Source: Methanomassiliicoccaceae archaeon (lineage in GTDB: Archaea; Thermoplasmatota; Thermoplasmata; Methanomassiliicoccales; Methanomassiliicoccaceae). Taken from it: a stretch of 64,000 nt of DNA. The stretch lies in the NCBI GenBank assembly GCA_040776945.1, contig JAXGZN010000002.1, positions 480,001 through 544,000 of the forward strand, in the 5' to 3' direction. Below, in pieces: positions 4,805 through 54,119 of the stretch (within the stretch, counting starts at the first letter, position 1; each line of letters begins with the position of its first letter). The notes beneath the pieces were generated by a model. That model did not search any database and was not told the origin of the DNA. It saw only the letters and a program-made list of their open reading frames with translations. The translations under genes and the position numbers were made by a program.

Positions 4805-4878
4805 GGCCGGGTCCGAGATTTGAACTCGAGTCTAGGGATCCACAGTCCCACAGGATGCCAGGCTACCCCAACCCGGCC
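4805..4878 (-). tRNA. tRNA-His(GTG)
   Basis: Reverse complement folds as a cloverleaf: acceptor GCCGGGT/ACCCGGC, anticodon loop CT-GTG-GA, T loop GTTCAAATC; G-1 encoded, CCA not encoded. Confidence 0.95.
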
Positions 4879-39979: not shown

Positions 39980-42511
39980 TCACTTCCCGTATTTCCTTTT
40001 CACCTCTGGAGTGTACCTCCTCAGCAGCGCTGCGTTGCTGACCACCGATACCGAGCTCATGGCCATCGCCGCGGCGGCCACGATGGGATTGAGCAGCAGT
40101 CCAAAGAACGGATACAGCACCCCTGCGGCAATGGGGATGCCTGCGGAATTGTAACCGAGCGCCCAGAACAGGTTCTGGCGTATCTTGGTCAACGTCCTCT
40201 TGGAGAGCTGGATGGCGGCCACCGCATCGAGCAGGTCGCTTCGGATCAGAACTATGTCCCCGGTCTCCATGGCCACATCGGTACCGCTGCCTATGGCGAT
40301 GCCTACGTCCGCCTGCGCCAGAGCCGGCGCGTCGTTCACTCCGTCCCCTATCATGGCCACCCGTCTGCCCTCGGCCTGCAGCCTGGCAACTTCCTGTGCC
40401 TTGTTCTCCGGCAGGACTTCGGCGATGTAGCGGTCGATGCCCACCTGGGAGGCGATGACCTTTGCTGTCCGGGGGTTGTCCCCGGTCAGCATGAGCACAT
40501 CGATCCCCATCTCCTTTAGCTCGGAGACCGCCTCCTTGGACGTCTCCTTCACCACATCGGCAACGCCTATTATGCCTATGAGAGCGGGGCCCGAGGACAC
40601 CAGCATTGCGGTGCGGCCCTCCTCCTCCATGCGCTGCAGGTCGGTCTCCGCTACGGACATGGATATCCCGTTGGAATCCATCATCCTCCTGTTTCCTATG
40701 AGAACTGTCCGCCCGTCGACAACTGCCCTCACTCCCTGCCCGGGAACGGCCTCGAAGCTATCAGCATCAGGGACCGATACGCCGTCTCTCATGGCCCGGC
40801 GGACGATGGCCTCGGCCAGAGGATGCTCGGAGCTCTTCTCCACCGCGGCGGCGGTTCTCAGGACATCGGCCTCGGTGCCATCCAGGACCAAGATGTTGGT
40901 GACCTCCGGTTCTCCTTTGGTGATAGTGCCGGTCTTGTCCATGATCACCAACTGGACCTTGCCTGTGTTCTCCAGGGCCTCAGCGCTCTTGAACAGTATG
41001 CCGTTCTCGGCCCCCTTCCCTGAGCCGACCATGATTGCCGTCGGCGTGGCCAGGCCAAGCGCACAGGGACACGATATCACCAGGACAGAGATGAAAATGA
41101 TCAGTGAGAACACGAACCCCTCGTCCCCTCCCACGAGAACCCCGTAAGCGTAGAGATACCAGATGAAGAACGCCACTGTGGCGATGACTATGACCGCCGG
41201 CACGAACCATGCCGACACACTGTCGGCATACCTCTGTATGGGGGCCTTCGATGATTGGGCATCCTCCACCAGTCTGATTATCTGCGCCAAAGCGGTGTCC
41301 TTTCCCACCTTGGTGGCTCGGACCTTGAGGACCCCGTTCTTGTTGATGGAACCGCCGACCACAGGTGATCCCGAGGTCTTGTCGATCGGTATGGACTCAC
41401 CGGTGATCATGCTCTCGTCGACCGCGGAACTGCCATCCTCCACCGTTCCATCGGTAGCGATCTTCTCCCCAGGGCGAACGATGAACAGATCATCGACCTT
41501 CAGGAGCTCGACCGGGACCTCTATCTCGGCCCCGTCCCTGACGACCCTGGCGGTCCGGGCCTGTAGTCCCACTAGCTTGCGTATGGCCTGAGACGTCCGC
41601 CCCTTGGCCTTGGCCTCAAGGTATTTGCCGAACAATATCAGGGAGATGATCATGGCCGAGCTGTCGAAGTAGGTGTGATGATGGAAAGGTATCAGCGATG
41701 GGAAGAACACCACGGCCACTGAATAGAAGTACGCGGCCGATGAACCCATTGCGATCAAGGTATCCATGTTCGCGCGGCGGTTCTTCAGAGCGTAATAGGT
41801 GCCCAGGTAGAACTGGAAGCCTGCTATGAACTGAACCGGGGTGGCCATTATGAACAGCAGGAGGTTCTCGAACCCGGATATGCCCAGCGCCGCCCCCCAG
41901 CCGAAGAAGTCGAACCCGATCATGAGGACCATTATCGGAACGCTCAAGGCAAGGGAGAACACAAGAAGGGTCAACTGTCTCTTCTGTTCCTTCTCTCTTT
42001 CCGCCATCTCTGTGTCCAGAGTCTCGGACTCCAGCACCTCGTAGCCCGCGTTCACGATGGCGGCCTTAATCGCTTCGAGGGTCACCATCTCCGGGTTGAA
42101 TCGAACCATGGCCTTCTCCGTGGCCAGATTGACACTGGCGGAGAGGACGCCTTCCATTGCGGTCAATACATCCTCTATTATGCCGGCGCAGGAGGCGCAG
42201 ACCATGCCTTTGATCCCCAACGTGACCTGGTCCACCGCTACGTCGTAGCCTGCCTTCTGGACGGCGGCGGCGATCTTCGATGGATCGACCAGCGAAGGAT
42301 CGTATACCACCCGGGCCTTCTCAGTTGCCAGGTTGACCGGGGCCTCTATCACCCCTGGCAATTTCCCGATGGCATCCTCGACGGTACCAGCGCAGGATGC
42401 GCAGGTCATCCCGGTAACTCCCAATGTTATCGTCTTCGTCGTTCCCGGACCAGGCTTCGGGGGCGGCAAAGGGCAGACCTCATCATTGCACGGCTCGTTC
42501 ACGCCAAGCAA
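39980..42511 (-). CDS. copA: Cu+-transporting P1B-type ATPase
   Basis: Two GMxCASC HMA domains, TGES, CPCALGLA, DKTGT, GDGVND, YN..IP..G, MAMSS. Confidence 0.96.
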   Translation of the reverse strand: MLGVNEPCNDEVCPLPPPKPGPGTTKTITLGVTGMTCASCAGTVEDAIGKLPGVIEAPVNLATEKARVVYDPSLVDPSKIAAAVQKAGYDVAVDQVTLGIKGMVCASCAGIIEDVLTAMEGVLSASVNLATEKAMVRFNPEMVTLEAIKAAIVNAGYEVLESETLDTEMAEREKEQKRQLTLLVFSLALSVPIMVLMIGFDFFGWGAALGISGFENLLLFIMATPVQFIAGFQFYLGTYYALKNRRANMDTLIAMGSSAAYFYSVAVVFFPSLIPFHHHTYFDSSAMIISLILFGKYLEAKAKGRTSQAIRKLVGLQARTARVVRDGAEIEVPVELLKVDDLFIVRPGEKIATDGTVEDGSSAVDESMITGESIPIDKTSGSPVVGGSINKNGVLKVRATKVGKDTALAQIIRLVEDAQSSKAPIQRYADSVSAWFVPAVIVIATVAFFIWYLYAYGVLVGGDEGFVFSLIIFISVLVISCPCALGLATPTAIMVGSGKGAENGILFKSAEALENTGKVQLVIMDKTGTITKGEPEVTNILVLDGTEADVLRTAAAVEKSSEHPLAEAIVRRAMRDGVSVPDADSFEAVPGQGVRAVVDGRTVLIGNRRMMDSNGISMSVAETDLQRMEEEGRTAMLVSSGPALIGIIGVADVVKETSKEAVSELKEMGIDVLMLTGDNPRTAKVIASQVGIDRYIAEVLPENKAQEVARLQAEGRRVAMIGDGVNDAPALAQADVGIAIGSGTDVAMETGDIVLIRSDLLDAVAAIQLSKRTLTKIRQNLFWALGYNSAGIPIAAGVLYPFFGLLLNPIVAAAAMAMSSVSVVSNAALLRRYTPEVKRKYGK

Positions 42512-42643
42512 TTGACCTAGCCTTTCAATTAACTTTGCCCCGATAAAAAGGAGAGTCGGGTCCCTTTACGAACGTAAGGTCGAGGCGGGCCGCCCCTCTC
42601 CGAATGGGAAGTAATTTTAACATAGCGTTCCAAAGGATAGAGC

Positions 42644-43234
42644 ATGATGGGATTGGATGAGAACGATTTGAACATCCTCAACGTTCTCCAGACCAATGGT
42701 CGACTATCCTATCGGCAGATATCCGAGAGGATCAGGATATCTGTTCCCACGGTGAGCAGCAAGATCGGCAACCTAGAGCGGATAGGCATCATCAGCGGTT
42801 ATCACGCCCGACTCGACCCTGAGAGGATGGGCGAGTTCAGCGCCATGGTGACGGTGAAGGCCCGCCCCTCGGAGCTGCCTGTGGTCATACGCCATTTTAA
42901 AAGTGATGACCAGGTGCGGCAGGTGTTCCTGCTGACCGGCGGTCGCCTTCTCCTCATATGCACATACGTGGATGTGCGAGCGCTGAACGAGTTTGCCTCC
43001 AAGCTAGCTTTGATCCCTGAGATATTGGACTATGACGTTGCTAACGTGATAGGCGTGGCCAAGGAGCTGCACAGAGCGGTCGTGGCCTCTGGGGCATCGC
43101 CGACCGCCAAGTGTGCCAATTGCGGGATCGAGATACGAGGGGGTGCCCTCCGCCTTAAGAAGGGTTCCTTGGTCCATCATCTATGTTCCGAAGGCTGCCT
43201 CGCCGCTTTCCGCGGCCGTCTGGGTAAATTATGA
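42644..43234 (+). CDS. Lrp/AsnC regulator with C-terminal TRASH metal-binding domain (CopR/CopT-like)
   Basis: N-terminal HTH; CANCG...HLCSEGC; divergent from copA. Confidence 0.85.
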   Translation: MMGLDENDLNILNVLQTNGRLSYRQISERIRISVPTVSSKIGNLERIGIISGYHARLDPERMGEFSAMVTVKARPSELPVVIRHFKSDDQVRQVFLLTGGRLLLICTYVDVRALNEFASKLALIPEILDYDVANVIGVAKELHRAVVASGASPTAKCANCGIEIRGGALRLKKGSLVHHLCSEGCLAAFRGRLGKL

Positions 43235-44055: not shown

Positions 44056-44212
44056 GCATGCTCATTATCAATAGAAATAATAGCAGGCCAGATGGCTATC
44101 TGCAAGGCGTCATTACCAGTTTTGATATTTAAAGGTATTCGGAGCATGCTCAACTACCTCTTTTATATTTCAAAAACCAAAACGGTCTAAAAAGGAAGAC
44201 CGGTGAGGAAAG

Positions 44213-44434
44213 ATGAAAGCAAGAACAATGACCCTGATTGGATTCGTAGCGCTCTTATTGGCCGCGTTCGGCACGGTCGCAGTGGTAGCTGACGTGGCCT
44301 CGGTGAACCTCATCATTCCAGGAATAGACCCGCACATCATCCCGGGCATCGATCCTCATATCATCCCCGGTATCGATCCGCACATCATTCCAGGAATAGA
44401 CCCGCACATCATCCCGGGCATCGATCCTCATTAA
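44213..44434 (+). CDS. Secreted-type propeptide with 5x IIPGIDPH repeats
   Basis: GGTGAGG SD, basic N-terminus plus hydrophobic stretch, repeats differing only at synonymous sites, own terminator. Confidence 0.85.
   Translation: MKARTMTLIGFVALLLAAFGTVAVVADVASVNLIIPGIDPHIIPGIDPHIIPGIDPHIIPGIDPHIIPGIDPH
44312..44431 (+). repeat. Five tandem 24-bp units encoding IIPGIDPH
   Basis: Unit1=unit4 and unit2=unit5 at DNA level; units 1, 2 and 3 differ only at codon third positions. Confidence 0.97.
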
Positions 44435-44438
44435 GCTC

Positions 44439-44480
44439 ATTGCCTCTTGCCCCCCTCGAGGCAATATATTTTTTATTTTT
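44439..44480 (+). terminator. Terminator between the convergent peptide and TPR genes
   Basis: ATTGCCTC...GAGGCAAT stem followed by TTTTTTATTTT. Confidence 0.7.
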
Positions 44481-44481
44481 C

Positions 44482-47172
44482 TCAGGCCAGGCTAGCAAGG
44501 GCCTGCTCGACCTCTTTTTTTAGATTCTCCGCAGACCCATGCGTAGTGAGCTGCAACGCCTCCTGAAGCAGACCGCTTGCGCCCTCTTTATCGCCGTTCT
44601 TTATGAACTGCTGGGCTATCTCATACAGCCAGCGCCCCAGAAGTAGGGGCGCGTCTTGCCTTCTGATGGTTTCCAAGGCATCGGTGAACTCGGCCTTGGC
44701 CCACTCCCACTCCATTCTCTTGTTGAAAATATAGCCGCGCATCAGGTGCAGGTCCGCCAACAGAACATTGTTCCCGAGCTTCTCGAATATCTTGCTCGCT
44801 TGGTTGATATGCTCTTGAGCCTGTTCCAGCATGTCGATCTCCACATACACGACCACAGCGTTCCTGAGCGCATATCCTTGCAGCTCCAGGTTCCCGGAGG
44901 TGCGGCCCATTTCAGCCGCCCGCTCGTGATATTTGACCGCCTCAGAATAGTTGTGCACCTCTGCCAGGCTTGTACCAAGACCGATGCATATCTTGGCGAT
45001 ATTGTCTACATCCCCTGTCCTTTCTATGACCTCCAGCGCCTCCTTTTTATATTTGATGGCCTGGTGATGGTCGATCAATGACGAGTACACGCGCCCGATG
45101 CCATACAAGGCCAATCCCAGACCGATATCGTCCATAGCGCTTTGTGCAAGTTCCATAGAACGGCGGAAGGCAACCATTGCATCTTGGTGGCGGCCTCGGT
45201 TCTGCAGAACCCCTCCCAGGTCGTAATAGGTCTCCACCAGTGCGTGAGGGTCTTTCACGTCCTCCGCCAACCCAAGGCTCCGCTTGAGATATTCCTCGGC
45301 CTTATCGAACACCGAGCGCCTAAGGTAGATAGCGCCAAGCCTGCGGTTGACCTCAGCTAGCAGTCTGCGGTCCGTTTGCGGATCGCTCAGGCCTATGATC
45401 TCCTCGAACCTGGTTATCGCCTGGTCCCACTCTCCGCGAACCTCTAGGACATCGCCCTCGAGGAGAAGAAGCTCCATCTTCTCACTTCGATCGATGTTAT
45501 CGCACTGTGCCCTAAGAGATGTGAGGAGAGGTGCGAACGGAAGGCTGTAGCCCTTGGATATGATGTCCCGGCCGCTGCCTGCCGCGATCCGCACCGCGGT
45601 GCTGTACTCCTTGGCCATCAAGCAATGGTACAACGCCTCCACGTGCGCTGGAGCGGAATTATCCAAGAGGTAATACCTGGACGCTGCCTTGTGATAGGTA
45701 ACGCGCTGCCGCGGAGAAAGCCGGGAGTAGAAGAAGTCGCGCAGCAGGTCATGCATCCCGATCATGCGACCTAAGGACTCATGCATCAGCGATTTGGAAA
45801 GGAGTGAATCTATGGTATCATAGTCGACGAGGTAGTCCTTGTACTCCATCTCCTTCTGGAAAAGACCAAGGTCTTTGGCGATCTCTTCCTCCATGGTGAA
45901 GAAAGCGTCAACGAGCACCGGATAGCGGAACACCGAGGCGATGTCCATTATCCTGCGCTCGGTTATGTCGAGCTTGGAATATACCTCCTGCTCAATGAAC
46001 ATGCGGACGTTCTTTCCCAGAGCGCTCTGCGGACCGTCCACCAGCTCCAAAAAGAGAGGATGCCCTCGGGTGGCCCGGTATATGTCCATCAGCTCGTGCT
46101 CGGGCAGTTCGCGATTCCGCATGAGGCGTAGAGAGCTCTCAACATCCAGGCCCTCCAGCATCATCTCCTTGACCTGCCCCTTGAAGACGGCCGCACGCGA
46201 GTAGAACGAGGGGATCTCACGACTTGTGCAGATCAAAGAGACGTCAGAGATGGACTCAAGAACGATCACCATTGCGGACAGGAACTCTTGCACCGTCCTG
46301 TCCCCTTTCTGAACATCGTCGATGATGAACACCGTTGGCAGGTCCTGGAGGTCCATCTCCAAGATCCCGCATACCTCTCCTACCGCCGGGCTGTCCGTCC
46401 TAGAAAGATATCGCTCAAGCCCCTTCTTGCCGAGCTGCGAAAGGAATTCCGCGATCGGCGTGAGAAGGATCTTTAGGTTCACCCATTCATGGACCCGATA
46501 CCAGTATACGTGCCTCTGTTCCCTTATGTCCTGGACGAACTTCGCGAGGAGAGTGGTCTTCCCGATCCCCGGGATGCCGCAGACGGCCATTATGCTCGCC
46601 GTATCAGAGTTGAGAAAGTCGATAAGTTCGGCCATCTCTTTCTGCCTTCCATAGAAGCTGCGGACCGTTGGCTTGCGATCGGTGTAATCCACGAACCTCC
46701 GCTCCTGCTTAACTTTCCCCTCGTGGAAAGAAGAGCAGTCAAAGCTCCCCCTCGACACGCTGATCGCGAGGTCGAGGAAGGCATATCTCTTCGGCAGATA
46801 CAGGGACAGCTTGCCCAGCTCGTCCTCATGCACCTTGCCATCAAAATCGATAATGTTGATCTTGGTGCGTTCGATCTCGAGCTTGAGATTGAGGGCGTTC
46901 TGATAGCCGCTGGGAGTTAGGAAGTAGACCTTTTTTACACTGGCGAACCCCTTGACATGTCTGGTGTGGACCTCGACCACGCCTTCCCCTTCCATGCTAT
47001 TTACGATCTTGGAGACATTGTTCCGTCCGACATCGACAGCCTCAGCTATCCCTTCCTGGGTAACGGTCGCCGGAGCGTCAGGATCTTGCTGATACCTCTG
47101 GTATGCCAGGAGGTGCAGGATGACCCTCTCACGCACGGTAAGCAGGGACTTCCTGGAGGAGCGGTTCACCAA
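44482..47172 (-). CDS. Winged-HTH + STAND/NB-ARC-like NTPase + TPR protein
   Basis: N-terminal TQEGIAEAV...NVSK HTH; FYGR..E, GIPGIGKTT Walker A, IIDD Walker B, GHPL; multiple TPR-like helical repeats. Confidence 0.88.
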   Translation of the reverse strand: MVNRSSRKSLLTVRERVILHLLAYQRYQQDPDAPATVTQEGIAEAVDVGRNNVSKIVNSMEGEGVVEVHTRHVKGFASVKKVYFLTPSGYQNALNLKLEIERTKINIIDFDGKVHEDELGKLSLYLPKRYAFLDLAISVSRGSFDCSSFHEGKVKQERRFVDYTDRKPTVRSFYGRQKEMAELIDFLNSDTASIMAVCGIPGIGKTTLLAKFVQDIREQRHVYWYRVHEWVNLKILLTPIAEFLSQLGKKGLERYLSRTDSPAVGEVCGILEMDLQDLPTVFIIDDVQKGDRTVQEFLSAMVIVLESISDVSLICTSREIPSFYSRAAVFKGQVKEMMLEGLDVESSLRLMRNRELPEHELMDIYRATRGHPLFLELVDGPQSALGKNVRMFIEQEVYSKLDITERRIMDIASVFRYPVLVDAFFTMEEEIAKDLGLFQKEMEYKDYLVDYDTIDSLLSKSLMHESLGRMIGMHDLLRDFFYSRLSPRQRVTYHKAASRYYLLDNSAPAHVEALYHCLMAKEYSTAVRIAAGSGRDIISKGYSLPFAPLLTSLRAQCDNIDRSEKMELLLLEGDVLEVRGEWDQAITRFEEIIGLSDPQTDRRLLAEVNRRLGAIYLRRSVFDKAEEYLKRSLGLAEDVKDPHALVETYYDLGGVLQNRGRHQDAMVAFRRSMELAQSAMDDIGLGLALYGIGRVYSSLIDHHQAIKYKKEALEVIERTGDVDNIAKICIGLGTSLAEVHNYSEAVKYHERAAEMGRTSGNLELQGYALRNAVVVYVEIDMLEQAQEHINQASKIFEKLGNNVLLADLHLMRGYIFNKRMEWEWAKAEFTDALETIRRQDAPLLLGRWLYEIAQQFIKNGDKEGASGLLQEALQLTTHGSAENLKKEVEQALASLA

Positions 47173-47294
47173 GCCAGAATGAGGATATTAGGAATAAAAT
47201 GTTTCTAATAAATTCAGCAAAAAAAGAGCATGCTCAAAATCGTATTATATACGCACAAGGAGAAAATAGGTATGAAGAATACAAGGTGATCGGA

Positions 47295-47843
47295 ATGAAC
47301 AACGGTTCCAAGATATCCCTGCTCCTTGAGGACTATCCTCGGAATGGCTATCACATATACTCCAAGATCGTTGGTCGCTCCACCAGCGGCCTCTGCATTT
47401 CCCGCCTGCATCCCGAATACGTGGGCCAGAAGTACGGCCTGGAGATGTCCAAAAGATACTGGCTAAGCGGCCAGAGCGGCGTTGACGTGATCTCCCCTAA
47501 GTCCCTTAACCACCTCCTCAAAGTGATCCGCCAGGAGCTTAGGGGCAGATCGGGAGGAACAATATTCCTCGACGGACTGGAATATCTTCTTCTATTCCAC
47601 GATATGAACAGGATACTTGGCATCCTAGAGCAGATCGATTCCCTCCTCAGGGAGGCCAAGGTGGAGCTCATCGTGGCTATGGACCCCCTGACCTTCGAGC
47701 AGAAGGACCTCGATACGCTTTATGCGGCCTTCCCTCACTCTTCCAGTGAAGAGATGATGGCAAGGCTGTCTGCCCAGGGCCCCTCGGCCATGGCCTCGAC
47801 CAGAGCGGTGTCCGCACCTCCCAGGGCCAGTCTGCGGGTCTGA
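47295..47843 (+). CDS. DUF835 domain protein
   Basis: GLCISRLHP, YWLS, IFLDGLEYLL, MDP; divergent from the STAND gene. Confidence 0.85.
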   Translation: MNNGSKISLLLEDYPRNGYHIYSKIVGRSTSGLCISRLHPEYVGQKYGLEMSKRYWLSGQSGVDVISPKSLNHLLKVIRQELRGRSGGTIFLDGLEYLLLFHDMNRILGILEQIDSLLREAKVELIVAMDPLTFEQKDLDTLYAAFPHSSSEEMMARLSAQGPSAMASTRAVSAPPRASLRV

Positions 47844-47955: not shown

Positions 47956-48510
47956 TCAGATGCATTCACTAGGGGTCACGATCTCGGCGAAGCGCCTGAG
48001 GCGGGCAACATATCGCGGGTCCATGGACAATGGGTCCAGAGGGACGAGCATGAGGGCTCTCGAGGCCATGATCCCATCGTTCACCTGTTCAAGGAACATC
48101 TGCACTTTGGTGGGGTCGTTGAACAAGGTCAAATACTCCACGCCCTCAAGGAGCACGACCGCGTTCCTCTTGCCCATTAAGAACGTCGAGACACGCTGCG
48201 ATATCCTGTGAAGCTGGTTCGGCGGAATGTTGGCAGCACCCGGCCGCTCGCTCAGCCAAGCGCATTCCAGCGATACTCCGGGCATCTGCTCTTGAAGCAG
48301 ATCTGGGTGCAGGCGGGTGACACACAGTGCCTTTGAGCCGGAAAAGACGAAATCCTGCAATATCCTCAGCGTCCTCTCCATCTTCTTCTCGCAAACGAAA
48401 TATATCCTTCCGAAATCAAAAAGGAAATCCTCTCCGGCGCTCAAGCTCACAAGGTCGGCACTCAATGTGTTGCCTCTCTGAGGAATCGGCACGGACGAAT
48501 TCACTTCCAC
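47956..48510 (-). CDS. DUF835 domain protein
   Basis: ALCVTRLHP, WLS, LLEGVEYL..FN, LDP. Confidence 0.85.
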   Translation of the reverse strand: MEVNSSVPIPQRGNTLSADLVSLSAGEDFLFDFGRIYFVCEKKMERTLRILQDFVFSGSKALCVTRLHPDLLQEQMPGVSLECAWLSERPGAANIPPNQLHRISQRVSTFLMGKRNAVVLLEGVEYLTLFNDPTKVQMFLEQVNDGIMASRALMLVPLDPLSMDPRYVARLRRFAEIVTPSECI

Positions 48511-53078: not shown

Positions 53079-53552
53079 CTAGGCGTAACTGGACACGACC
53101 TCGTCGGATATGTGCTCGAGCATCTCAAGCTTCTGAGGATAATGATTGCGGGGGTCCAGACTTATTATCAAGTTGCTGCCATCCTCATTGACCTTGCCGG
53201 TGGCCCTTGCCAGAACGTTGAGCACAGGCCGGAACCCGTTCCACATCTCCAGCACATCCAGGCCGTTCAATACAATGATCCCATCTTTGTTATCCTTCAG
53301 GAAGGTATTGATGTACTTCTCGAACGCCTGAAGGTTCATCGGCGGTATGCATTCTGGATTGGGCCTCGTGCTGAGCCACATGGTCTCCAGCATATGCTCA
53401 TCAAAGTCCAACTGGCTTCTCAGCAGGCGCGGCGGATTCTTTGAGATATAGAGAGCCTTTCGGCCTTTGTCCAACTCCTTCCTCAGGACCTGATGGGTCC
53501 TCAACGGCACGCGCTCCTCGAACAGGTAGAACTTCCCCTTCGATAGTTTCAT
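53079..53552 (-). CDS. DUF835 domain protein
   Basis: LYISKNPP, WLS, VLNGLDVL...NGF, SLDP; GGAGGG SD. Confidence 0.82.
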   Translation of the reverse strand: MKLSKGKFYLFEERVPLRTHQVLRKELDKGRKALYISKNPPRLLRSQLDFDEHMLETMWLSTRPNPECIPPMNLQAFEKYINTFLKDNKDGIIVLNGLDVLEMWNGFRPVLNVLARATGKVNEDGSNLIISLDPRNHYPQKLEMLEHISDEVVSSYA

Positions 53553-53818
53553 CTTATGCCCTCCTTTTCCGAACCAATTCCATGAGAGCTTGTGAATATT
53601 AGTCTGTTGCCCGTTGGTGATTATCAAAAAGTGATAATAACGCCGCAAAAAAAGCGTACTTTTGGTAATTAATGATGTACACATTCTTACTGGATAGTTA
53701 GAAATTCATGACGGAGGTTATATTACTTGATGCTATTGATAATGATAATATACTGGGATCATAGGAAATACTGGATGGACCAGTGAAGAAAGAGCAGAAA
53801 AAAAATGGACGGAAAATG

Positions 53819-54119
53819 TGTCAGGTGAGGGTAGTAGGCCCCCTTCTGTTTCAGGCAGCATTCAACTAAGCACCCTACCCGTCGGTCCTGAGCTGTCATC
53901 CCGACTGTTTGGGCTTGCTCCAGTGGGGAGTCGCCGTTTCACCAATTCCATGGCCAACGTCACTGCCGAGCAGATCACCCTCGGCCATGGCTGTGTCGTT
54001 TCTGCGCCCTTGCCCTGGCTCTCACCAGATCGCTTGCGCGATCCACCTTTCTCGCGGAGGGGGGACCTTCCTCAGCTGGGTCGAAGACCCTACCGTCGGC
54101 CGCCCTCCCTCTCCTGACA
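53819..54119 (-). ncRNA. rnpB: Archaeal RNase P RNA
   Basis: Reverse complement contains GAGGAAGGTCCCCCC and AACAGAAGGGGGCCTAC (P4) with complementary ends (P1); about 300 nt. Confidence 0.93.

Follow-up and report, generated by a model that had tools for sequence, protein, structure and literature searches.

A gene for a 73-residue peptide precursor that ends in five identical copies of the octapeptide IIPGIDPH lies tail-to-tail with the gene for a large transcription regulator in the stretch of archaeal DNA considered here (64,000 nucleotides of contig JAXGZN010000002.1 from a Methanomassiliicoccaceae archaeon; hereafter the window, with G000 denoting the genome that contains it). The regulator combines a winged helix-turn-helix (wHTH), the nucleotide-binding oligomerisation domain (NOD) of STAND proteins (signal transduction ATPases that have numerous domains), and a tetratricopeptide repeat (TPR) sensor. 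Sequence comparisons across the order Methanomassiliicoccales delineate a putative module of four parts: the STAND regulator, the convergent multi-copy peptide gene, a divergent gene of the DUF835 ('iKaiC') family and a distal non-coding element, the last three each situated behind the box AGCATGCTCAA and a TATA box. We propose that the peptide is the genetically encoded inducer of the regulator in an autoinduction loop, a reading for which we see slightly less than an even chance. As a more tentative possibility, the module may represent the first genetically encoded peptide pheromone system in Archaea, in which a re-imported x-IP-xx-DPH peptide would induce a STAND switch, convergent with the RRNPP systems of Bacillota and their phages.

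The peptide gene and its convergent regulator

The two convergent genes and their immediate signals in the window are as follows.

44202..44209, + strand: Shine-Dalgarno-like sequence GGTGAGGA, 3 nt before the peptide ATG
44213..44434, + strand: peptide precursor gene, open reading frame (ORF) of 73 aa
44213-44311, + strand: leader, with two basic residues (MKARTM), about 20 hydrophobic residues and DVASVNL
44312-44431, + strand: five IIPGIDPH units, the array running up to the stop codon at 44432-44434
44447..44474, + strand: terminator-like hairpin (stem 44447-44464) and T run TATATTTTTT, 3' of the peptide gene
44482..47169, - strand: transcription regulator of the form wHTH-STAND(NOD)-TPR, with a GTG start at 47169 and 895 aa
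45687-44485, - strand: TPR sensor of the regulator, about residues 495-895
46677-45700, - strand: NOD of the regulator, about residues 165-490
47142-46870, - strand: wHTH of the regulator, about residues 10-100

The initial annotation had described a repeat ORF with a leader and five identical units beside a wHTH-NTPase-TPR protein, and all of these elements were confirmed by ORF calling, Tandem Repeats Finder and Pfam; the peptide gene's own Shine-Dalgarno sequence and terminator were also recovered, as GGTGAGGA before the ATG and a hairpin with T run after the stop codon. The array registers as a repeat of period 24 at 44311-44427 (4.9 copies, 77% DNA matches, score 136), and none of the remaining rows among the 14 that Tandem Repeats Finder returned for the window scores above 45. 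A back-translated IIPGIDPH pattern has five matches in the 2.17-Mb genome, all at the peptide gene, and its control has none. GGTGA-type motifs precede the start codon of the peptide gene in many orthologues in the alignment of upstream regions. Twelve relatives of the peptide are present in a collection of 5.8 billion proteins, four of them called 'hypothetical protein' and the others unnamed, and searches of Pfam, NCBIfam and PADLOC returned no family for it. Because the genome encodes the alpha subunit of methyl-coenzyme M reductase and the relatives' records are titled Methanomassiliicoccus or Methanomassiliicoccales, we regard the organism as a methanogen.

As called, the regulator ORF comprises 896 aa (44482..47172, - strand) and converges on the peptide gene across a gap of 47 bp; the GTG start at 47169, and hence the length of 895 aa, is indicated by the orthologues. 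The wHTH has weak, sub-threshold Pfam matches only (HTH_Crp_2, 22.7 bits; TrmB, 20.4 bits). Between it and the TPR part, residues 173-376 match AAA_16, ATPase_2 and NB-ARC (NB-ARC, E 2.4e-8), and the sensor itself matches TPR_12 (E 2.2e-25) and PF17874 TPR_MalT (45.8 bits against a cut-off of 45). Invariant in an alignment of 29 orthologues are the GIPGIGKT P-loop (including G198, I199, G201, G203, K204 and T205), DD (D284, D285), GHP (G369, H370, P371) and H473/D474 of GMHDLL, columns which we take to be the Walker A, Walker B, GxP and MHD-like motifs of the NOD. Among solved structures, the profile of these 29 sequences has its best match in 6mfv (PH0952 of Pyrococcus horikoshii; residues 166-421, E 5e-45), followed by weaker matches to LGN/Pins (about 1e-31), a generic peptide-binding TPR protein, and to RapF, RapJ and NprR (1e-9 to 1e-6); the AfsR structures 8k60 and 8jke match the TPR part (E about 1e-7). 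In NCBIfam the TPR region has sub-threshold matches to AfsR (68.8 bits, cut-off 1430) and to HaaT, which is associated with peptides that are ribosomally synthesised and modified post-translationally (RiPPs; 39.8 bits, cut-off 1125). On these profile matches, the regulator is classed as a member of the MalT/PH0952-type STAND transcription factors with a TPR sensor.

The regulator is single-copy in G000, where one further match covers the N-terminal domain only. A role as an antiviral STAND (Avs) or other defence protein was considered and rejected, because PADLOC gives only generic TPR and P-loop matches (best 57.4 bits to 'TPR'; STAND_TPR 23.3 bits over 75 residues), the gene is single-copy and its synteny among housekeeping genes is conserved.

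Of 61 genomes from the order, 40 have an orthologue of the regulator, full-length or split; family f7 yielded none (0/10), and genus g3 yielded N-terminal-domain matches only (0/4). We assembled 55 loci from two sources, which collapsed to 47 distinct loci when compared by the last 300 regulator residues. Downstream DNA is readable in 42 of these, and all 42 carry a peptide gene at the same convergent position, so that the proposed pairing of repeat peptide and HTH-STAND-TPR protein has held up across the order, none of these readable loci lacking an adjacent peptide gene. The remaining five loci are cut by contig ends, terminal units still being visible in three. A basic and hydrophobic leader followed by 2-13 units is encoded at 36 of the 42 loci, and a leader with a single C-terminal unit at one (L060); three (L028, L043, L058) have many units behind a hydrophilic N-terminus, and two (L016, from genome G003, and L055, from G008) consist of mini-cistrons. 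The convergent pair is retained down to about 47% regulator identity. In one Methanomassiliicoccus species (L012/L066) an insertion sequence (IS) element separates a 12-unit peptide gene from the regulator; the ORF of about 331 aa between the two genes there looks like that of a transposase.

Across lineages the unit keeps the frame x-[I/L]-P-x-x-[D/E/S/G]-P-[H], and its forms include IIPGIDPH, IIPSIDPH, TIPLIDPH, IIPGLEPH, YIPVSDPH, YIPVNDPH, VIPGNSPH, GIPGNSPH, GIPGNDPH, TIPVLDPH, TIPMLDPH, IIPGTDPH, SIPFLDPH, AIPFIDPH, SIPLLDPH, VIPGVDPH, MIPHIDPH, NIPGIDPI and (M)PLPGVGPH. In the window the five units have three DNA versions, which differ at seven sites, all of them third codon positions, and encode the same residues. 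Over 34 peptide genes (one of these rows, L020, being a mis-called frame), 175 DNA sites vary inside protein-identical units and 166 of them are third codon positions; at L011 eight units have eight DNA versions, and at L045 13 units have 11. In several genera, identical cores such as IPGNDPH, IPVSDPH, IPGNSPH and IPHIDPH are separated by spacers that vary in both length and sequence.

The mini-cistron form dispenses with the precursor. In G008 a box-1 promoter is followed by four tandem cistrons with a period of 114 nt and 99% likeness, each with a Shine-Dalgarno sequence, the ORF ATG-TTT-GGA-AGC-ATC-GGT-CCG-CAC-TAA (MFGSIGPH) and a hairpin; at eight codons, the ORF has the same length as one unit. 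At least one MFGSIGPH cistron lies beside an assembly gap in G003. The regulator is intact in G003 and split into two frames in G008, and searches of metagenome contigs with the mini-cistron sequence, exact and then degenerate, gave no match. Because units are protein-identical yet differ at synonymous sites, and because variable spacers separate invariant cores and a mini-cistron variant exists, these patterns indicate that the short unit is the selected entity and the functional product.

The shared box and its putative targets

The boxes, promoter elements and DUF835 genes of the window are as follows.

44125..44133, no strand assigned: TATA-like A/T-rich stretch ATATTTAAA, placed 9 nt upstream of box 1 and retained across the 25 aligned regions
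44143..44153, + strand: box 1 AGCATGCTCAA, with palindromic core AGCATGCT, before the peptide gene
44161..44168, + strand: TATA box TTTTATAT for the peptide gene, following box 1 by 7 nt, at a conserved spacing
47227..47237, + strand: box 2 AGCATGCTCAA, 58 nt upstream of the regulator start codon and directed away from the regulator
47243..47251, + strand: TATA box TATTATATA for the DUF835 gene, following box 2 by 5 nt
47295..47843, + strand: DUF835 ('iKaiC') gene, 182 aa, with AGGTGA 5 nt before the ATG (PF05763, E 3.6e-20)
47956..48510, - strand: second DUF835 gene, tail-to-tail with the first (PF05763, E 9.2e-23)

When 25 regions upstream of peptide genes are aligned, the conserved elements are AGCATGCTCAA (A or C at position 10), a TATA box 5-7 nt downstream of it and an A/T-rich element about 10 nt upstream, the rest being largely diverged; the core AGCATGCT is invariant in all 25. 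The role of TTTTATAT as a promoter element is presumed from archaeal promoter architecture. The upstream element ATATTTAAA may be the TATA box of the divergent neighbour, a haloacid dehalogenase (HAD) hydrolase gene in the window, and a reverse-strand match of the box-TATA pattern occurs at G000:C2:524126-524150. Box 1 precedes the peptide gene at 29 of 30 loci, the exception being the IS-disrupted locus, and box 2 stands 40-60 nt upstream of the regulator start at all 30, with the core occurring exactly twice per locus.

Behind box 2, an orthologous DUF835 ORF of 147-204 aa is found at 30 of 30 loci. Galperin and colleagues list DUF835 as an inactivated KaiC ('iKaiC') that forms an output domain in response regulators of archaea (PMC5847659). 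A second DUF835 match takes the same place at 21 of the 26 orthologue loci scanned, and we infer that this second gene belongs to the module; no box of its own was seen before the copy in the window. A third DUF835 gene lies at 53079-53684 (- strand) in the window, and G000 has nine DUF835 matches, some of them C-terminal in frames of 350-1392 aa, as in an expanded signalling domain family.

In G000, three places stand out in a scan with a position weight matrix of 63 box sites, with scores of 65.8 (box 1), 56.8 (box 2) and 47.3 (a third site); the next independent site scores 1.9, and the hits in between are reverse-strand reads of the same three sites. Of the 40 genomes with the regulator, 39 contain the pattern AGCATGCTC-N6-12-TTWWATA, as do five of the 21 without it; its control has no match in any of the 61. 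Among the box-bearing genomes without a regulator, the site in G027 lies about 280 bp from a contig end, G055 has a single site and is 66% complete, and the f7 genomes G041 and G053 have one site each.

The third site of G000, at C1:659190-659214 (- strand), falls outside the window and precedes a non-coding element and an AAA_18 adenylate-kinase-like gene downstream of it. The same element and kinase gene follow 17 of 20 extra sites that were fetched. The distal element (G000:C1:659060-659214, - strand; also L117-L131, L133 and L136) comprises 70-120 nt of non-coding DNA with the sequence GGAGAAGGYCC.CGGGG, a GC hairpin and a T run, and five regulator-less genomes keep the kinase gene with neither box nor distal element. 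Because the GGAGAAGGYCC.CGGGG box, GC hairpin and T run are conserved, the distal element is likely to be a regulator-controlled small RNA. A search of Rfam gave no family for the element, the only hit being to sR30 (E 0.16) elsewhere, and RNAalifold on 12 copies returned a poor consensus (-2 kcal/mol, six pairs). In one species an extra box-2-type site, AGCATGCTCAAATCGGGTTTATATA, stands before a 389-aa ORF (L132, G054:C24:118600-121600), the start of which looks, by eye, like a response-regulator receiver domain.

Wherever it is readable, the recognition helix of the box-bearing orthologues of the regulator is GRNN without exception; box-less distant homologues have other sequences there (GRST, RRSH, RRSQ, ARSN and others). 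We infer that the regulator binds the box through this helix. That the peptide gene has its box in common with the regulator's divergent neighbour would fit an autoregulated loop.

In RNA libraries (four runs, each from a different study), contigs span the peptide ORF, the regulator and the DUF835 gene and show no differences. Contig depth is 1523, 1454, 99-185 and about 25 over the peptide ORF and 9-13, 9, 2-5 and 2-3 over the regulator, depth being a poor measure in contigs from libraries that may contain DNA. The intergenic regions 44057-44199 and about 47162-47285 have little or no cover; in all four runs the DUF835 contigs start at 47286-47301 (in X1 with adapter letters at the end), and the regulator contigs stop at 47132-47161. 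These extents are compatible with divergent transcripts, although contigs cannot show RNA ends.

Proposed mechanism and alternative explanations

In the mechanism that we propose, the regulator would rest as an autoinhibited monomer until a hepta- or octapeptide x-I-P-x-x-D-P-H binds the TPR sensor and releases autoinhibition. The NOD would then swap ADP for ATP and multimerise, as in MalT, and the wHTH domains would bind AGCATGCTCAA just upstream of the TATA box. Firing of the peptide promoter would create positive feedback, and the promoters of iKaiC and of the distal small RNA would fire as well, and perhaps also that from which the regulator itself is divergently transcribed. In species with a leader, the units would be exported by a Sec-type route, cut out after the His and re-imported, perhaps by an Opp-type ABC importer; export and re-import would make the loop density-dependent, a quorum-sensing-like signal from cell to cell. 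A minority of species would make the peptide without a leader, two of them directly from 8-codon cistrons. The receptor type (STAND NOD plus TPR sensor, closest to PH0952) fits the proposal.

Comparisons of sensor and switch bear on this proposal. Among regulators paired with IIPGIDPH within the genus, the ratio of TPR to NOD identity is 0.97-1.05; in the MFGSIGPH lineage, the NOD is 80-83% and the TPR region 66-69% identical, a ratio of 0.81-0.85, and between L050 (AIPFIDPH) and L051/L053 (SIPFLDPH) the NOD is 93-94% and the TPR region 64-67% identical. The sensor appears to diverge in bursts, to 64-67%, while the NOD stays at 84-94% (L050, and L034/L035, compared with L051/L053), which suggests recombination or positive selection confined to the sensor. 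At R693 (in GIGRVYS), presumably position 9 of helix A by TPR numbering, the residue is basic in all 29 sequences whose unit has Asp or Glu as its sixth residue and in all three with Ser; in two of three sequences with Gly there, the column holds M or Q. Taken together, the comparisons are suggestive of co-evolution between peptide and TPR sensor. A prediction of the complex between TPR residues 490-895 and peptide residues 33-73 scored 0.01 against a mark of 0.32 and is counted neither for nor against binding.

The leader bears on the export step. The precursor in the window begins with MKARTM, 20 hydrophobic residues and VVA/D, a hydrophobic region long enough to serve as an anchor. The initial annotation had called the product secreted, a prediction that may apply to the 37 of 42 readable loci with a hydrophobic leader and does not extend to the other five. 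A class III (pilin-type) signal and a lipobox were considered and set aside, no consistent G/A cleavage site or Cys being present across the orthologues. For re-import, G000 has three loci with Opp/Dpp/Nik-type binding proteins, and PF00496 proteins are encoded by 38 of the 40 genomes that have the regulator and by two of the 21 that lack it, a split that is also seen inside genus g5.

Several observations weigh against an encoded inducer, or against individual steps of the loop. Genome G026 retains a box before DUF835 with neither regulator nor peptide gene (L137, G026:C5:30500-36500); this is a hybrid box, box-1-like in its upstream half and box-2-like in its downstream half, directly before DUF835, and looks like the product of a deletion between two boxes. 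Another transcription factor could bind the box. Sec export is not universal, the five loci without a hydrophobic leader being L028, L043 and L058, with their many units behind hydrophilic N-termini, and the mini-cistron loci L016 and L055, and in one species (L052) the terminal His of the unit is replaced by Ile. Nickel import is a possible role of the PF00496 proteins, and the shrinking of genomes in host-associated lineages may alone explain why they go together with the regulator. The order is divided into free-living and host-associated clades in the text available of an earlier study (PMC7883539). The pairs in the TPR/NOD comparison are not phylogenetically independent; the ratio is 0.76-0.77 for L034/L035 against L051/L053 despite their common unit, and 0.98 for L010, whose unit has a G-to-S change. 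The unit is identical in seven of nine genus-level sequences, whose regulators are only 80-90% identical to that of the window, and such near-constancy within a genus contrasts with RRNPP systems, whose pherotypes typically diverge fast.

A further point of this kind comes from more distant homologues of the regulator (24-35% identity), which are found in other Thermoplasmatota and in Poseidoniales with neither box nor repeat peptides, some of them retaining a divergent DUF835 gene. Four (L061, L077, L084 and L088; about 28-34% identity) have at the convergent position a gene for a secreted protein of about 85 aa, with a signal peptide, the motif series DxDxDGLPDxWE...YFG...DDPD...TDPxDP and a weak TSP3_bac match, an arrangement that would fit equally well a regulator that controls a secreted product.

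The strongest alternative makes the peptide a regulated output: the regulator would sense something else, such as a metabolite or another protein, through its TPR domain and turn on a small regulon, and the repeat peptide, as an abundant product that is secreted or anchored in the membrane, would act, for example, at the surface, in metal binding or as an antagonist. We consider this account less likely than the inducer reading. In its favour, the shared box shows co-regulation and not the identity of the ligand, the TSP3_bac-like protein of the four distant homologues is another small secreted product at the convergent position, each unit carries Asp and His, and the unit is nearly constant within the genus; yet an effector that is secreted or sits at the surface is hard to square with single 8-mer mini-cistrons and multi-unit forms, both leaderless, unit changes often go together with episodes of divergence specific to the TPR region, and a gene pair that persists to about 47% regulator identity points to more than co-regulation.

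The layout of a leader followed by identical cores with variable spacers also resembles a multi-core RiPP-type precursor, whose modifying enzymes would be encoded elsewhere and whose pathway activator would be the STAND protein, in the manner of the large regulators of the SARP (Streptomyces antibiotic regulatory protein) and LAL (large ATP-binding LuxR-type) groups. The weak, sub-threshold AfsR and HaaT matches of the TPR region point the same way, but the conserved partners of the pair are DUF835 genes, with no modifying enzyme as a conserved neighbour and indeed no enzyme of any kind conserved across families among the neighbours of the module, and the mini-cistron form has no leader for an enzyme to recognise; we regard a RiPP as improbable. 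An intact repetitive polypeptide of the surface, elastin-like or disordered, next to the regulator through inherited synteny without coupling, would accommodate the short P-G-rich repeats behind a possible hydrophobic N-terminal anchor and the partial synteny of the HAD hydrolase and copper-ATPase genes as well, but is very improbable in view of the box common to the peptide gene and the regulator-proximal gene, the constant cores between varying spacers, the existence of single-unit (L060) and mini-cistron forms, and the lack of box, peptide and distal element alike in regulator-less genomes.

The surroundings of the module differ between families. Its flank carries the HAD hydrolase in some families and, in others, an ORF named from its sequence as NAD-epimerase-like, and the HAD hydrolase and copper-ATPase genes keep their place beside the module in only part of the families. 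In the window, a copper-type P-type ATPase with two heavy-metal-associated (HMA) domains (- strand) adjoins an AsnC-type regulator (+ strand) at 39980-43234; the latter has a C-terminal Cys-rich, zf-FCS-like tail, and the two look like an archaeal copper-resistance pair. A link of the module to this ATPase and its AsnC/TRASH-like regulator was rejected, the synteny being absent in the families with the NAD-epimerase-like neighbour. The window also holds an archaeal RNase P RNA at 53823-54115 (- strand; 219.8 bits), a tRNA gene at 4805-4877 (- strand) and the mcrA gene at about 24658.

Significance and relation to known systems

The reports of archaeal signalling known to us concern small molecules only. 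In the literature searched, supplementary files apart, there is no description of such a system, or of any genetically encoded peptide signal, in archaea. Cell-to-cell signalling by ribosomal peptides is, in the available text of two studies, defined and searched for only in Bacillota and phages (PMC11343458, PMC10075063). The module described here is an order-wide candidate in methanogens of digesters, sediments and guts, and its locus defines a peptide, a candidate receptor, an 11-bp putative operator and three putative target promoters, so that the steps are testable with synthetic peptide and one purified protein. If the proposal is true, it would provide a STAND ATPase with a short encoded peptide as inducer, useful for understanding the switching of MalT, of nucleotide-binding leucine-rich repeat receptors (NLRs) and of Avs proteins, and two routes to a higher peptide dosage, by tandem units in a precursor and by tandem mini-cistrons. 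If the peptide is an output only, the regulon of box, regulator, iKaiC and small RNA would still be, to our knowledge, an undescribed archaeal regulatory unit.

Density signalling has been proposed in archaea, including a methanogen, on the basis of carboxylated acyl-homoserine lactones (Methanosaeta) and diketopiperazines (haloarchaea); these are small molecules made by enzymes and not encoded peptides. The multi-copy layout of the archaeal precursor is similar to that of the yeast alpha-factor precursor, where tandem identical peptides behind a signal sequence are cut out and give more signal per transcript, but the two are not homologous; alpha-factor is processed by Kex2 at dibasic spacers and sensed by a membrane G protein-coupled receptor. 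Large SARPs of the AfsR type have the same domain order as the regulator, namely DNA-binding domain, NOD and TPR, the DNA-binding domain of AfsR being of the SARP/OmpR type; they differ in that domain and in being bacterial, controlled by phosphorylation and without a partner peptide.

MalT and PH0952 share with the regulator a NOD, an arm and a TPR sensor. The inducer of MalT is maltotriose, and its DNA-binding domain is C-terminal. We know of no member of the MalT/PH0952 family with a peptide gene as conserved partner or with a AGCATGCTCAA box. In the available part of its structural description, PH0952 appears as a MalT-homologous STAND with a TPR sensor, its DNA-binding N-terminal domain having been removed ('deltaN'), and no inducer is named for it; for the STAND class, the same text states that the inducer, once bound, relieves autoinhibition and that multimerisation dependent on ATP follows (PMC6468293).

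The closest parallel in logic is provided by the RRNPP(A) systems of Bacillota and phages (Rap-Phr, NprR-NprX, PlcR-PapR, AimR-AimP, Rgg-SHP), which likewise place an HTH-carrying cytoplasmic TPR receptor beside a small propeptide gene. Peptides with a Sec leader, leaderless peptides (SHP, ComS) and autoinduction through an operator before the peptide gene (the PlcR box) are also known there, and the typical RRNPP peptide leaves the cell, is processed there and returns through an Opp permease. A tandem duplication of a Phr pheromone within one propeptide has been described as well, in the text available of one study (PMC11343458). RRNPP_detector, according to the accessible account of it, takes proteins of 250-500 aa as receptors and was applied to Firmicutes and viruses only (PMC10075063). 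The initial annotation had drawn an analogy to RRNPP systems, which survives at the level of logic and fails as membership: RRNPP receptors measure 250-500 aa and have no NTPase, whereas the archaeal protein is a MalT/PH0952-type STAND of 895 aa with its NOD between winged-helix HTH and TPR. The TPR similarity of RapF, RapJ and NprR to the regulator is generic and weaker than that of LGN/Pins, and the genes here are convergent rather than tandem, with up to 13 identical units, in another domain of life. By this comparison, the logic of the candidate system would resemble that of RRNPP; its novelty would lie in the class of receptor, the operator and the domain of life, and likewise in the mini-cistron format and the iKaiC and small RNA outputs.

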